A stretch of 64,000 bases of DNA from Candidatus Moraniibacteriota bacterium (GTDB taxonomy: Bacteria; Patescibacteriota; Minisyncoccia; Moranbacterales; UBA2206). Of the stretch, positions 37,995 to 42,377 are shown one piece after another. Location of the stretch: positions 160,474-224,473 of the forward strand of contig CAVZKT010000002.1 of assembly GCA_963775955.1 (NCBI GenBank). Reading direction: 5' to 3'. Both the position numbers and the translations under genes were made by a program. The notes below the pieces were generated by a model. It made no database searches and was not told where the DNA came from. It saw only the letters and a list, made by a program, of their open reading frames with translations. How positions within the stretch are numbered: the stretch's first letter is position 1; every line of letters begins with the position of its first letter.

Positions 37995-38816
37995 TTACTC
38001 TAGAGGGCTTTTAATTCTTTTTAAATTAGGGTTGGTAACTTTTGTGTATAACTGGGTTGTGCGGATATTTTGGTGTCCCAGTAATTCCTGCACATATCTC
38101 ACATCCACGCCATTTTCTAATAAATGAGTGGCAAAGCTGTGGCGCAGGCTGTGGAAAGTGGCGTCTTTTTCTATTCTAGCTCTTTTCAGCGCTTTTTCAA
38201 AGACCAGTTGGGCCGTCCTTTCGGTGAGTTTTCCGCCGCGCTCGGACTCAAAAACATATTCATTGCCATGCTGGAGCGCCATAAGTTCAGAAAGATCCGC
38301 CTTTAATTTTTCCGGAAAAACGGTAATCCGATCTTTATTTCCCTTGGCGTTTTTTAAATGGACTGTTAATTCATTCAGGTTTATATCCCTGATTCTCAGG
38401 TTTACAGCTTCGCTGACGCGCAGTCCGGCGCCATAAGAAAGGGAAATGAGCAATTTATGCTTTCTGTTTTCAATTGAATCGATAATTTTTTCTATTTCAG
38501 CCCGCGAAAGCACTACCGGCAGTTTTTTAGAGGTTTTGGCGAATTTAATGTCTATGCGGATCCGGCTTCTGTATATTTCCCGGTAAAAATATTTAATGGC
38601 GTTGAGATGTAAATTGATCGTCTGTGGTGATTGCCCGCGCGCCTGTTTTTTCAGGAGATATTTTTTAAGCAGGGGAATATCCGGGTCTCGCTTTACTACT
38701 TTTATGTAACTGAAATAGTCTGCCAGACAGCCCAAATAACTTTCAATCGTCCGGGGACTATAATTTCGCAATTTCAACTCATCTTTAATTTTACCCAAAA
38801 GCTCTTTTAAGTCCAT
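37995..38816 (-). CDS. tyrosine site-specific recombinase (XerC/XerD / phage-integrase family)
   Basis: 273 aa. GLRVSE (R), HSLRHSFATHLL (HxxR), LLGHQNIRTTQLYTKV (H...Y) catalytic signature, intact. Confidence 0.85.
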   Translation of the reverse strand: MDLKELLGKIKDELKLRNYSPRTIESYLGCLADYFSYIKVVKRDPDIPLLKKYLLKKQARGQSPQTINLHLNAIKYFYREIYRSRIRIDIKFAKTSKKLPVVLSRAEIEKIIDSIENRKHKLLISLSYGAGLRVSEAVNLRIRDINLNELTVHLKNAKGNKDRITVFPEKLKADLSELMALQHGNEYVFESERGGKLTERTAQLVFEKALKRARIEKDATFHSLRHSFATHLLENGVDVRYVQELLGHQNIRTTQLYTKVTNPNLKRIKSPLE

Positions 38817-38954
38817 GCCTTTTATGCTATAATTATTCCAGTGAAGTAATTATATCACACTTACAATATACTTCGCAATACCATCAAATTTAAGCATATT
38901 AACCAACATTAATTCGCATAAAAAAGAGTTAGCTGAAATATTCCTTTTCTTTTC

Positions 38955-38988
38955 TGGGCTATCGCCCAAATTGTTTTAAAAAATTTTC
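38955..38988. repeat. left 34-bp inverted repeat (aaattgttttaaaaaattttcaaatttctttttc)
   Basis: Perfect reverse complement of 42177-42210. Confidence 0.9.
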
Positions 38989-39109
38989 AAATTTCTTTTT
39001 CATTAATTAAAGAGGGGTAATAAGGTGTTTTCTCCGCTCCGCTACGAAAACGATTTATTTACAAGGGGAAAACGAATATAATAATACTAAACTAATCTTA
39101 AAAAATACT

Positions 39110-39898
39110 ATGGAACTAGATAATTTTCAAAAAAGCTTATTGAAACATACAGAGGATTTTCGCAAAATTTTGGCTACACCTTCGGGCGACTGGTCGGTTA
39201 AGGGCTTTATTGATGTTGCGAAAAACATCTATACAATTTCAGTTGACACAAAAGTTGTTTCTAAAATTATTGAGCTGATGATGTTTCCTGTTTTACAAAA
39301 ATTTGCAAAGGAAAATGGCTTTGAAATGCAATTTTTGCACGGAACAAAATCATTATCCTGATGTTACTTTCATAACAAAAGACAAACAGAAAATTGCACT
39401 TGATCTAAAAAGCACTTACAGAAAAGAAATCACGACGATGTTTCTGGTTTTACCCTCGGGGCATTTACGGGATATTTTAGATTTAGAGATTCAAACAAAA
39501 ATATCACTTTTCCATACAAACAATATAGCAAGCACTATATTTTGGGGGTTATTTACACCCAACAAGAAGATCTTATCGATGAAAACAAAGTTTATACAAT
39601 AGATGACCTCGAAGAAATTTTATCTGTGGTAAAAGATTTTGATTTTATTGTCCAAGAAAAATACAAAATTGCCAAAGACCGCCCCGGAAGTGGCAACACA
39701 AAAAATATTGGCTCTTGCGTTAAAATTGCCGAACTCAAAGAAGGCGCAGGGCCATTTTCAAAATTGGGCGTAAAAATATTTGATGATTTTTGGATGAACT
39801 ATATGACAGCGGAAATGTCGCGAAGCGCAAAATTAAGAAAACCGCCATACACAAACCTAAAAGAGTATTTAAAATATAGAAATATCAAAAATGTTTAA
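39110..39898 (+). CDS. PD-(D/E)xK Type II restriction endonuclease, split over three frames (shifts ~39300-39360 and ~39545-39600)
   Basis: YPDVTFITKDKQKIALDLKSTY (PD...D-L-K). The three overlapping ORFs are contiguous in sense. The gene overlaps the downstream methyltransferase by 8 nt. Confidence 0.5.
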
Positions 39899-40982
39899 CG
39901 TTATTACCAAGACAAAACAAGAACAATCGCAACTTTTTAGCGATTTACCAACCAGCAAAGCTGGTGTTTTGCCGTCCACACGCTACCAAGGAAGTAAATA
40001 TAAAATTTTAAAATGGATTGATTATTATACAAAGGATTTAAAATTTCATTCCGTTCTTGATGCTTTTGGCGGCACTGGTTGCGTTGGTTATATGTTTAAG
40101 AAAAACGACAAGCAGGTTTTTTATAATGATTCTTTAAAATTTAATCATTATGTCGGTCTTGGAATAATAGAAAATTCAGAAACTACACTAGACAACGATG
40201 ATATTGATTTTATTTTACAAAAACACTCAAAAATTAAATATCCGACTTTTATTTATGACACATTTCACGATATTTATTTTACAGATGAAGAAAATAAATG
40301 GCTTGATGTTGTTATAACAAACATTGGTCAAATAAAAGATAAATATAAACAAGCATTGGCTTATTACGCGCTTTTTCAAGCGTGCATAATTAAACGACCC
40401 TATAATTTGTTTCATCGAAAAAATTTATACATCAGAACGGCAGAGGTTGAGAGAAGTTTCGGAAATAAAAAAACTTGGGATACACCATTTGAAGATCATT
40501 TTAGAAAATTTATTGAAGAAGGAAATAACGCCGTTTTTAATAACGGAAAGGAAAATAAAGCTTTTTATTCAGATATTTTTGATTCAGATGCTAGTGCCGA
40601 TTTAGTTTATATTGATACGCCTTATATTTCTGCAAAAGGCATAGGCGTTAATTATTTTGATTTTTACCATTTTCTTGAGGGTATTGTTTTTTACAAGCAA
40701 TGGCCAAACTTAATTGACGAAAAATCAAAGCATAAAAGAATTAAAAACGGTAAAAACGAATGGTGTAATAAGGGTGAAATACATCAGGCATTTGAAAAAT
40801 TATTTGAAAAATTTAAAGATTCTATTTTGGTCGTTTCTTACCGAGATGACGGAATTCCAACGATAGATGAATTAGTGAAAATGCTTGAAAAATATAAAAA
40901 ATCCATTGACGTAAAAAAACTTGATTATAAATATGTTTTGAGCAATGGAAATTCAAAGGAAGTTTTAATTGTTGCTAAATAA
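39891..40982 (+). CDS. Dam-class (D12) N6-adenine DNA methyltransferase
   Basis: RYQGSKYKILKWI; LDAFGGTGCVGYMF (FxGxG); VYIDTPY (DPPY-like). Confidence 0.75.
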   Translation: MFNVITKTKQEQSQLFSDLPTSKAGVLPSTRYQGSKYKILKWIDYYTKDLKFHSVLDAFGGTGCVGYMFKKNDKQVFYNDSLKFNHYVGLGIIENSETTLDNDDIDFILQKHSKIKYPTFIYDTFHDIYFTDEENKWLDVVITNIGQIKDKYKQALAYYALFQACIIKRPYNLFHRKNLYIRTAEVERSFGNKKTWDTPFEDHFRKFIEEGNNAVFNNGKENKAFYSDIFDSDASADLVYIDTPYISAKGIGVNYFDFYHFLEGIVFYKQWPNLIDEKSKHKRIKNGKNEWCNKGEIHQAFEKLFEKFKDSILVVSYRDDGIPTIDELVKMLEKYKKSIDVKKLDYKYVLSNGNSKEVLIVAK

Positions 40983-40995
40983 TTTTTATTAAATT

Positions 40996-41277
40996 ATGGA
41001 CATTGAATTAATAAAAAATTGGGCGAATCAAAATCAGGGCTTCTTAGCTATTATTTTATTTTTAATTTCGTTATTTGTTGGCTGGATTTCTGGATTTTTT
41101 AAATGGCTTTTTGGAAAGTTTGGTAAGAAAAATCCTTATATAAGTGCTGGCAGGGATATTAAGGCGGGAAGCGATATTTTTGTTGGCAATAAGACATTTA
41201 TTCAAAAAAGTGGCAAAAATAGCGAAAATATTCAAGGCGAGAATATAACTGTAAACAAATATGGCAATGATAAGTAA
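40996..41277 (+). CDS. hypothetical small single-TM protein (93 aa) with C-terminal AGRDIKAGSDIFVGNK motif
   Basis: TM FLAIILFLISLFVGWISGFF. Stop overlaps the downstream start by 17 nt. Confidence 0.55.
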   Translation: MDIELIKNWANQNQGFLAIILFLISLFVGWISGFFKWLFGKFGKKNPYISAGRDIKAGSDIFVGNKTFIQKSGKNSENIQGENITVNKYGNDK

Positions 41278-42115
41278 CCAAAAATCAGGCGATGATTCCA
41301 CAAATCTGCAAGCTGGCAGAGATATTGTTGTAAACACCGGCAACTCAATTGCCCTTTATTCAATCGAAGAAGTCGCCAAACAGCTTATGGGTTCTGTTTT
41401 CGGCGAATTACCAGATGAAACAAAAAAGCAAATAGAGGCTAACCAAAAATCTTATTTTCAAGCACTGTCTGAAAATTTAGGAAAAATAATTAAACAAAAT
41501 GATGAACTGAAAAAAGTTATTGACTTTCCTGATTTTCAATATATTTCGAAAACTGCTTCAATTTCAGCCAGTCGGTCATCTTCAGCAGAATTGCACAAAA
41601 ACCTGTCATCACTGATTATTCAAAGAATAAATAATGACAGCGAAGATTTAAAACGGATCGTTTACGATGAGACAATTTCAACTATCAATAAATTAACGAA
41701 AGATCAGTTAAAAATATTGACTCTTTGTTTTTTGTTGAAACGAACAAAAATGAATGGACTTACAAATATCACTCAATTTAATCAGTATTTAGAACAAAGA
41801 ATAAAACCATTTATTGACTTCAAAAAGACGACTGCGGAATTTGAGCATCTTGTTTATACTGGCTGTGCGAGCATAAGCATTGCAAGCCACGATATAGACG
41901 GTTTATTAAAGGGAAATTACCCCGAGATTTTCAAAGACGGTAATACACCGGAAAAATTATTAACTGGTAATGAAACGACTACAAGATTAACAAGCGTTTG
42001 GAAAGATACTCAAATTCAAAATATGAATTTGACTTCGGTTGGCATAGTGATTGCTAGCACATTTTACGAACAAGTAACTGGTGATAGAATAAACATTGAT
42101 ATTTGGATAAATTAA
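41261..42115 (+). CDS. hypothetical 284-aa protein with N-terminal LQAGRDIVVNTGNS motif echoing the upstream gene; no recognisable family
   Basis: Translationally coupled to 40996..41277. Last gene before the right inverted repeat. Confidence 0.55.
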   Translation: MAMISNQKSGDDSTNLQAGRDIVVNTGNSIALYSIEEVAKQLMGSVFGELPDETKKQIEANQKSYFQALSENLGKIIKQNDELKKVIDFPDFQYISKTASISASRSSSAELHKNLSSLIIQRINNDSEDLKRIVYDETISTINKLTKDQLKILTLCFLLKRTKMNGLTNITQFNQYLEQRIKPFIDFKKTTAEFEHLVYTGCASISIASHDIDGLLKGNYPEIFKDGNTPEKLLTGNETTTRLTSVWKDTQIQNMNLTSVGIVIASTFYEQVTGDRINIDIWIN

Positions 42116-42176
42116 GTAAGGTGTTTTGGGCTTCGGGCATTCACCCCTTAATCCCCTCTACCCTTCGCCCAAAACG

Positions 42177-42210
42177 GAAAAAGAAATTTGAAAATTTTTT
42201 AAAACAATTT
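42177..42210. repeat. right 34-bp inverted repeat (gaaaaagaaatttgaaaattttttaaaacaattt)
   Basis: Perfect reverse complement of 38955-38988. Confidence 0.9.
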
Positions 42211-42377
42211 TCTTGTCGGAAAACAAAAGAAAAGGAATACATCAGCTAACACGGCATATCTGGTTACGGCTTTTATACAAAAGCCTCCGCCCATATTTGC
42301 CTCCGCTGCGCTACGGCAAACATCAGATATGCCGAAACGTTGTGGCGAAATAATGCAGGACGCCGTTGAAATTTAAA

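Follow-up and report, generated by a model that had tools for sequence, protein, structure and literature searches.

An apparently undescribed integron-like variant in a Candidatus Moraniibacteriota bacterium: a probable restriction-modification gene cassette beside a Xer-type recombinase gene

In the 64,000-nucleotide (nt) stretch of Candidatus Moraniibacteriota DNA studied here (GenBank assembly GCA_963775955.1, contig CAVZKT010000002.1, positions 160,474 to 224,473; hereafter the window), an earlier reading, made from the sequence alone, had noticed a segment with restriction-modification (R-M) genes that was bounded by inverted repeats and lay next to a tyrosine recombinase gene, xer. We believe that this segment (38931-42341, Table 1) is probably a single gene cassette in an integron-like capture platform. 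Likely components of this platform are the gene for the 273-amino acid (aa) Xer-type recombinase, an attI-like site and cassettes that each end in an attC-like palindrome. The anatomy of the locus, its exact junction, the arrays of sites, the covariation within these sites and the complementarity between each cassette's own ends were observed in the sequences themselves and are presented first; they describe what is apparently an undescribed variant of integron-like character.

The segment begins at an attI-like site located about 113 nt upstream of xer, whose conserved end reads ...TTCGCATAAAAAAGAGTT/ (the slash marks the junction), and the homology with relatives stops at that very base. The consensus ...TTCGCATAWAAAMGAGTT/RNNNGAAAT (MGAGTT/RNNNGAAAT) was found in about 25 Patescibacteria loci (Parcubacteria, Moranbacteria, Saccharibacteria, Berkelbacteria, Shapirobacteria and others), with unrelated sequence beyond. 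For the window, for loci L011 and L091-L093 (92% Xer identity) and for L008 and L009 (90%), the region upstream of xer is common up to ...AAAGAGTT (GAGTT), past which the continuations are unrelated: /AGCTGAAAT... in the window, and /GTGCGAAAT... and /GTAGCGAAAT..., respectively, in the two groups of relatives. Accordingly, the earlier view of the segment as an accessory insertion was borne out by its absence from the junction in L011 and L091-L093, in L008 and in L097 (90% Xer identity). Contigs L094, L010 and L036 stop exactly at GAGTT, and L007 (a 99% identical strain) and L028 stop at GTTA; moreover, the 600 nt upstream of xer contain the ends of 12 of 27 Patescibacteria contigs, the 600 nt downstream those of none. 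In de Bruijn assemblies, contigs end where the reads begin to disagree, and the five contigs that stop at the junction may reflect variation within populations at that base. As in integrons, a primary site with insertion at a fixed G/TT is present next to the integrase gene, and crossover would take place within the GTT at 38928-38930. A near-perfect palindrome (TATGCGAAAC-AA-GTTTCGCATA), by its sequence a candidate dif-like or recombinase-binding site, lies about 10-35 nt from GAGTT on the xer side in L020-L025 (L022 thus also among them), L031, L034 and L036, and is absent from the window's own lineage.

The other end of the segment is an attC-like site with the layout that we found generally: an R'' box ending in ...TAAC, a 12-bp L stem, a variable loop, the L' stem, RAAC and the R' box GTT. 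As single-stranded DNA, the window site folds at -19.9 and -21.4 kcal/mol (z about -2.8, either strand). A 92%-identical site stands between two cassettes in L004, where it is followed by GTTAGATGAAATATTCC... and then by the core and the 5' module of the window's left end described below. Nine copies of the site share a consensus fold with compensatory changes in 12 of 19 pairs, and a covariance model built from these nine, whose E-values are rough, detected 45 sites in the 751 kb searched. In the loci anchored on xer, 42 of 42 sites lie upstream of that gene and on one strand (80 kb searched), while the 214 kb downstream of xer and the Bacteroidota loci yielded none. In the 45 sites, 94.6% of the cells were paired, compared with 66.6% after shuffling and 32-50% for slid controls, and two-sided changes numbered 194 against 60.7 expected. 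These counts lean to structure because the alignment was fitted to the covariance model, so that the slid controls are the fairer comparison. AAC is kept in 40-45 of the 45 sites and GTT in 41-44, and site length varies from 73 to 211 nt. Imperfect palindromes of the attC type (R''/L''...L'/R', with AAC, GTT and a variable loop), which form part of the definition of an integron, are therefore present. Most of the 45 sites also carry a conserved mismatch, CA opposite AA, that interrupts the extended R stem (42240-42241 and 42349-42350 in the window), possibly a structural mark, the L stem being without extrahelical bases. A further attC-like site (119.6 bits) was found at 10684-10796 of L095, the viral contig UViG_3300001336_000172 of IMG/VR, 58 nt from the contig end and with a 560-aa terminase-like open reading frame (ORF) within about 30 nt past the site's GTT, which suggests a phage or prophage joined at an attC-like site.

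In integrons, the 5' end of a cassette complements the inverse core of its own attC and not that of its neighbour. The same is seen here. At 3.79 of 5 positions, the R'' box is complementary to the first 5 nt that follow the GTT where its own cassette begins, but to the 5 nt after its own GTT, where the next cassette starts, at only 2.64 of 5 (random, 2.49 ± 0.18); the own value exceeded the next one in 28 cases, was lower in 5 and tied in 6 (Wilcoxon p=1.9e-4). In the window, the 5'-terminal GTTAGCTG and the 3'-terminal R'' box CAGCTAAC complement each other exactly (8/8), as against GTTGTGGC downstream. Cassettes are thus TT...G units with a 5' end complementary to their own inverse core, as is required of integron cassettes. 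The comparison of the prfA-rpmE interval that the sequence-only reading had proposed was informative in this respect: the interval in L097, like that in the window, is flanked by rpmE and, at the opposite end, by xer-prfA-prmC, but these same flanks enclose other cassettes and no R-M cassette, namely about 12 small co-oriented genes (HIT, HicA with a partner, and others), among which at least seven attC-like sites, all of one strand, are interspersed. The first cassette of L091 is a 119-aa ORF followed by an attC-like site, the same gene-plus-site pattern recurs in L001 and L004, and L097 and L001 have one gene per cassette. Arrays of one orientation, divergent from the integrase gene, are another integron trait found here. 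Cassettes measure 105-6301 nt, and many have terminal inverted repeats of 30-54 nt.

The recombinase gene is intact (PF00589 plus a SAM-like N-terminal domain), as the sequence-only reading had stated of its XerC/D-family recombinase at 37995-38816, and its product is a putative cassette integrase. In relatives, as in the window, xer is followed by the co-directional prfA-prmC, beyond which the same DUF192 and glycosyltransferase genes recur, and this conserved synteny marks xer as backbone rather than insertion. For this reason, and because the protein is conserved in Patescibacteria with or without the repeat, the notion that the recombinase belongs to an inserted island had to be abandoned. 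The best 120 of its 7887 homologues are 73-99% identical, belong to Patescibacteria (Parcubacteria, Moranbacteria and others) and are nearly all 272-276 aa long, with a few of up to 307 aa; an identical recombinase, P0133 of a 360-kb contig, is among the homologues listed, while exact-protein look-ups of the window recombinase and of the 284-aa cargo protein gave no match. With 220.2 bits, the protein just passes the cut-off of the XerA equivalog NF040815 (220), and with 208.6 bits it stays under that of the integron integrase TIGR02249 (265). The best matches in the Protein Data Bank are XerA (4A8E) and VchIntIA (2A3V), with about equal scores. The alignment to 2A3V runs in two stretches (query 7-182 to IntI 6-184, and query 197-272 to IntI 242-317) and skips IntI 185-241, so that about 43 IntI residues have no counterpart and the IntI-specific insertion (the I2 helix region) is absent. 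What comes nearest in the literature searched is a 'Cand' subgroup of Xer-related recombinases from candidate phyla, presented as presumed Xer substitutes with genomic context not given (PMC8138268). In the alignment of xer upstream regions, the -35 hexamer of the predicted xer promoter overlaps a conserved TTCGCAATA box (38870-38880). The Bacteroidota loci (L042, L043, L045, L049, L055, L060 and others) hold distant Flavobacteriia homologues, 35-41% identical, and their contigs often break off 50-340 nt past the gene's 3' end; here the recurrent breakpoint of assembly is a different one.

Several points weigh against an integron-like cassette. The recombinase is without the IntI-specific insertion, which two papers consider necessary for the recombination of integron hairpins (PMC7790495, PMC9668308). 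No conserved extrahelical base, of the kind that IntI recognizes in the L box of integrons, occurs in the L stem of the 45 sites, which pairs continuously. The loci were picked via xer with 10-kb flanks, so that sampling was near xer only, and to this must be added the lean of the pair counts mentioned above. Neither the circular junction of a cassette nor an empty site of the same strain was seen among assembled contigs. An own promoter and four genes in 3.4 kb make the cassette atypical for an integron, and the perfect conservation of the 34-nt core of its repeat finds no explanation in a cassette model. Finally, the hairpins could be transcribed elements (terminators or RNAs), since both strands fold equally well. 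Lacking both the I2 region and extrahelical bases, this is not a canonical integron: the system would work like one but falls outside the group as defined by the IntI domain.

The last of these points can be extended to a variable island, in which the hairpins are terminators or small RNAs and the boundary results from, for example, homologous recombination between repeats. That the hairpins follow co-oriented genes and fold as RNA or DNA on either strand would suit such an island, and arrays break assemblies as any repeat would. Terminators, however, do not explain invariant AAC and GTT boxes, nor does an island account for the complementarity within each cassette or for a boundary that is exact to the nucleotide, at a conserved site beside a recombinase, in about 25 lineages. 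Given also that the sites are wholly absent downstream of xer and correspond to no Rfam family, we consider an island of this kind very unlikely.

A Xer/dif-type module, similar to the integrative mobile elements exploiting Xer (IMEX) or to the pdif modules of Acinetobacter, calls for closer attention. Here a housekeeping Xer would act on double-stranded dif-like sites, modules would collect at the chromosomal dif site beside xer and the hairpins would be incidental. A dif site of the XerA type measures about 28 bp, has two inverted arms around a 6-8-bp centre and serves in dimer resolution. The recombinase does reach the XerA cut-off without an IntI insertion, and the dif-like palindrome lies just left of the junction in many lineages; in addition, pdif modules are likewise bounded by inverted Xer sites according to PMC7399989, and the phage-like contig seems to be joined at the GTT of a site. 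We nevertheless find a Xer/dif module unlikely, because the units are strongly covarying hairpins of 90-200 nt and not arm-spacer-arm sites of 28-30 bp, and because the junction falls about 10 nt outside the palindrome, which the window's lineage does not even possess. Moreover, the pairing of the AAC...GTT boxes spans a hairpin, and the R'' box matches the beginning of the cassette to which it belongs, a pattern that fits a folded site.

The inverted repeat first drew attention to the segment. A window-wide repeat search yielded a perfect match (34/34) with arms at 38968-39001 and 42177-42210, in agreement with the sequence-only reading for the match and the right arm, but with the left arm 13 nt away from where it had been placed (38955-38988). 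The 34-mer occurs only twice within the window, and the chance expectation is nil (0 matches in 100 shuffles with up to 3 mismatches allowed). The repeat is also longer than had been noted: an outer 26-nt pair (38928-38953 and 42225-42250) is 92% complementary, an unrelated 14-nt spacer separates it from the core, and weaker similarity extends about 26 nt inward, so that, in all, a patchy inverted repeat of about 100 nt surrounds the perfect 34/34 core. Since terminal repeats of 30-54 nt are present in many cassettes, the long repeat of the window represents the extreme of a general feature. The same end modules (outer arm, spacer, core, promoter-bearing 5' module, 3' hairpin module and reversed core) surround other cargo in L004 (DpnI and neighbours), L035 (Gracilibacteria, 2 kb) and L090 (5 kb). 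The module of the left repeat was found at 89-97% identity in L004, L089 and L090, the core being identical also in L089 and L090, and the 3' module shares an exact 25-mer with L004 and has close copies in L001, L023, L031, L035 and L089. The 34-mer itself gave no match in the reference genome collection or in viral contigs and occurred in two other metagenome contigs only, and no Rfam family matched the hairpin or the repeat.

These modules do not always coincide with a cassette end. The right core of L004 is 1.2 kb inside the end of the cassette, and core and cassette end are therefore separable; in L089 (1579-1735), core and 5' module come directly after a 3' module, between two co-directional genes and without an attC-like site, which indicates that the modules of a transcription unit can exist without a recombination site. 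In L090, the inner 5' and 3' modules are reversed relative to the outer ends and to the attC-like site, probably through flipping between the arms during evolution. As a mere guess, the 34-nt core might be an A/T-tract that binds a protein or bends the DNA. Three other origins were discarded: misassembly, as the independent assemblies L004, L035 and L090 have the same architecture; direct-repeat integration in the style of phage integrases, as the ends are inverted; and a loxP- or FRT-like 34-mer, as it is self-complementary over its whole length at only 20/31 positions and its one dyad consists of low-complexity A/T-rich sequence. The agreement of 34 bp with the size of loxP and FRT sites, to which attention had been called, is coincidental.

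With these data, the proposal of an invertible, phase-variable defence cassette, in which the recombinase flips the 3.2-kb segment at the 34-bp repeats and so switches R-M, can be assessed. A perfect inverted repeat beside a tyrosine recombinase is what such a system would show, and the reversed inner modules of L090 are as expected from a crossover within the core. However, the recombinase is widely conserved whereas outside the window the 34-mer turned up in just two metagenome contigs, and the sequences that track the recombinase are the attI-like GAGTT site and the attC-like hairpins. The core, 1.2 kb inward in L004, is also without arm-spacer-arm symmetry and bears no resemblance to the conserved TTCGCATA boxes, and the 34-bp repeat is thus probably not the recombination site for which it had been taken. 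The switch relative to an outside promoter fared no better: the promoter-like site (39058-39085) and all four genes are inside the repeats, where a flip would switch nothing, and no reversed copy of this cargo was found in the fetched loci; the only other contig of the same strain, L007, stops at the attI junction. An inversion switch thus appears quite unlikely to us.

The terminal inverted repeats (TIRs) might alternatively belong to a transposon or an element resembling a miniature inverted-repeat transposable element that brought in the R-M genes independently of the recombinase. Terminal repeats of about 100 nt, the occurrence of the same ends round other cargo (L004, L090, L035) and the low G+C content would all be in keeping with it. 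We consider it extremely improbable, since the four cargo genes encode no transposase domain, there is no target-site duplication in the flanks (...AAAAGA and ACGGCA...), the ends fall precisely on the GTT and AAC boxes of array sites, and all copies with context sit in arrays of the same hairpin sites. The second suggestion of the sequence-only reading, that of TIR-bounded cargo mobilized by the neighbouring integrase, was essentially right in substance, and the proximity of segment and recombinase is no accident, although the sites used would be others, namely the attI-like and attC-like ones.

For the integron-like cassette that we favour, the sequences suggest the following mechanism. Strand exchange by the recombinase would occur within GTT; for insertion, its partners would be attI and a folded attC-like hairpin, for excision, two attC-like hairpins, and cassettes would move as TT...G units via a circular intermediate. 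The predicted junction of the circular cassette is ...GCCGAAACG/TTAGCTGAAAT, that is, ...CAGATATGCCGAAACG/TTAGCTGAAATATTCC, and that of the empty locus is AAAAAAGAGTT/GTGGCGAAAT. The inverted repeat would be the cassette's own two ends, with pairing continued for about 100 nt through the shared 5' and 3' modules; a circular or single-stranded cassette would bring the arms to within about 90 nt of each other, so that they would make the stem of the site longer. Catalysis by this recombinase, a single-stranded substrate and activity at the present day are what we infer from the features described.

The cargo lies in a segment of 32% G+C, against 39-43% in the flanks. The four genes attributed to it are all on the + strand, as had been reported, but the endonuclease gene is not intact: frame analysis resolved it into three ORFs (39110-39361, 39303-39602 and 39542-39898), as a result of two compensating frameshifts at about 39335 and 39425, +1 at a T5 run and -1 at an A run about 90 nt later (39330-39430). 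Its catalytic PD...D-x-K segment is in a frame other than that of the rest of the gene. As in EcoRV-type Type II R-M systems, a PF09233 endonuclease is followed by a D12-class adenine methyltransferase; in contrast to them, the endonuclease frame is broken twice and the system is carried as cassette cargo. The 93-aa protein had no match in Pfam, NCBIfam or PADLOC, and Pfam and PADLOC gave nothing for the 284-aa protein beyond the family name of NF045477; homologues of the cargo proteins were found in none of the fetched loci. EcoRV-type R-M and two further proteins fit the defence and toxin-antitoxin cargo common in chromosomal integrons. The sequence of the promoter-like site is kept in the 5' module of L004. 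Outside the segment, the 3' end of prfA (36860-37040, - strand) has three small insertions compared with L008 and L011, not all of them at homopolymers, so that, of 344 residues, about the last 25 (beyond about residue 319) are read out of frame. These insertions represent either sequence errors or a decaying release factor gene and, taken together with the endonuclease frameshifts, make errors in the window sequence, or decay of these genes, possible.

Compared with known systems, the platform is closest in its features to the sedentary chromosomal integrons, such as the Vibrio cholerae superintegron with its V. cholerae repeats (VCRs). Both have a recombinase gene divergent from an adjacent primary site and mostly single-gene cassettes in one orientation, with an AAC...GTT palindrome, an L stem and a variable loop. 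Crossover in GTT (a presumption in our case) and a cassette 5' end complementary to its own inverse core are also shared, as are sites that are similar within a lineage, like the VCRs, and toxin-antitoxin or defence cargo. The differences are a 273-aa recombinase without the I2 helix region, an L stem without conserved extrahelical base, R-box pairing that extends 30-100 nt, a core box of GTT-R-NNN-GAAAT instead of GTTRRRY and, at least in the cassette of the window, an own promoter. With single-recombinase Xer/dif systems (archaeal XerA, XerS/difSL, XerH/difH), IMEX and pdif, the platform shares a Xer-type enzyme, a site adjoining its gene and the accumulation of foreign modules, but it has long covarying hairpins in place of 28-30-bp dif sites. 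The CTX phage, an IMEX, uses a folded single-stranded hairpin; arrays of many small cassettes are not a known IMEX feature. Similarly, inversion switches (fim, Bacteroides invertons and the hsdS shufflons of Type I R-M) have inverted repeats next to a tyrosine recombinase and a link with R-M, but in our case nothing is switched, neither a promoter nor a coding segment, the recombinase is a protein conserved phylum-wide and not peculiar to the locus, and the repeats are cassette ends.

No account of integrons or cassette arrays in Patescibacteria, or the Candidate Phyla Radiation (CPR), was found in the literature searched, the coverage of which was incomplete, so that an earlier description is possible; the paper on IntegronFinder 2.0 and that on archaeal integrons do not mention Patescibacteria phyla. 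As far as that literature shows, this would be the first cassette-capture system described for the CPR, whose genomes are tiny and whose gain of accessory genes is little known, and its cargo includes R-M, toxin-antitoxin and other defence-type genes. In the view given in PMC4792948 and PMC7790495, integrons go back to a Xer-like recombinase that acquired the I2 helix and, with it, the capacity for folded single-strand recombination. A widespread platform of attC-like hairpins with a Xer-type enzyme devoid of I2 would, if true, bear directly on that origin and would provide a natural enzyme with which to test it. More tentatively, and as a possibility on which we would not insist, there may exist a phylum-wide 'proto-integron' of Patescibacteria, in which one Xer-type recombinase without I2 shuffles cassettes via hairpins beside its own gene and may also serve as dimer resolvase and point of phage integration, being either an intermediate between Xer/dif and IntI/attC or an independent invention. 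In practical terms, the recurrent assembly breakpoint upstream of xer implies that accessory cassettes of the CPR are systematically missing from metagenome-assembled genomes.

Table 1. Coordinates of the features at the xer-rpmE locus of the window
Feature	Position	Strand	Basis or remarks
Probable gene cassette, ~3.4 kb, 32% G+C	38931..42341	+	Starts just past the GTT of the attI-like site, ends with that of its own attC-like site
273-aa tyrosine recombinase, XerA/IntI-like ('Cand' Xer-related group)	37995..38816	-	PF00589 + PF13495 (SAM-like N-domain)
Predicted xer promoter TTGCGA-18-TATAAT with TG	38849..38878	-	Promoter scan
attI-like site	38870..38930	+	Conserved region ending ATTCGCATAAAAAAGAGTT (38912-38930)
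Left terminal inverted repeat	38928..39027	+	R' box GTTAGCTG + outer arm 38928-38953, spacer, core, inner similarity to ~39027
Small hairpin spacer GGGCTATCGCCC in left repeat	38956-38967	+	
Perfect 34-nt core, left	38968-39001	+	
Promoter-like site of the cassette, TTTACA-16-AATAAT	39058..39085	+	Promoter scan; inside the repeats, 25 nt before the first ORF
EcoRV-family restriction endonuclease	39110..39898	+	PF09233 on all three pieces; PADLOC REase_II
D12-class (Dam-like) N6-adenine DNA methyltransferase	39891..40982	+	PF02086; PADLOC MTase_II, 8e-64
93-aa predicted membrane protein	40996..41277	+	No family match
284-aa protein, LPO_1073/Vpar_1526 family	41261..42115	+	NF045477, 7.8e-71
Conserved 3' module hairpin (GTTTTGGGC...GCCCAAAAC)	42123..42175	+	Fold; directly after the last stop codon
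Right terminal inverted repeat	42150..42250	+	Inner similarity, core 42177-42210, spacer 42211-42224, outer arm
attC-like site	42238..42351	+	Covariance model match, 122.9 bits
Parts of the attC-like site	42243-42341	+	R'' CAGCTAAC, A, L'' CGGCATATCTGG (42252-42263), loop, L' CATCAGATATGCCG (42321-42334), AAAC, GTT
R'' box CAGCTAAC, end of right outer arm	42243-42250	+	
Inner hairpin in the variable loop	42268-42285	+	
R' GTT	42339-42341	+	Followed by GTGGCGAAAT
rpmE terminator hairpin (far flank)	42377-42398	-	
rpmE (far flank)	42408-42689	-	Far flank in L097 too

Elsewhere in the window, a noncoding stretch of about 1 kb (34940-35990) with 26-30% G+C lies by the 3' end of prmC and shares 82% identity with L008. 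Within it, at 35641-35703 on the + strand, is a tiny lysine-rich ORF (MAKKKKAAKKKKKGGKKKKR) conserved in L008, L011, L001, L016 and L018. Four tRNA genes (Thr, Tyr, Thr and Trp) were found at 46202-47519, within a low-G+C stretch (46250-48500).

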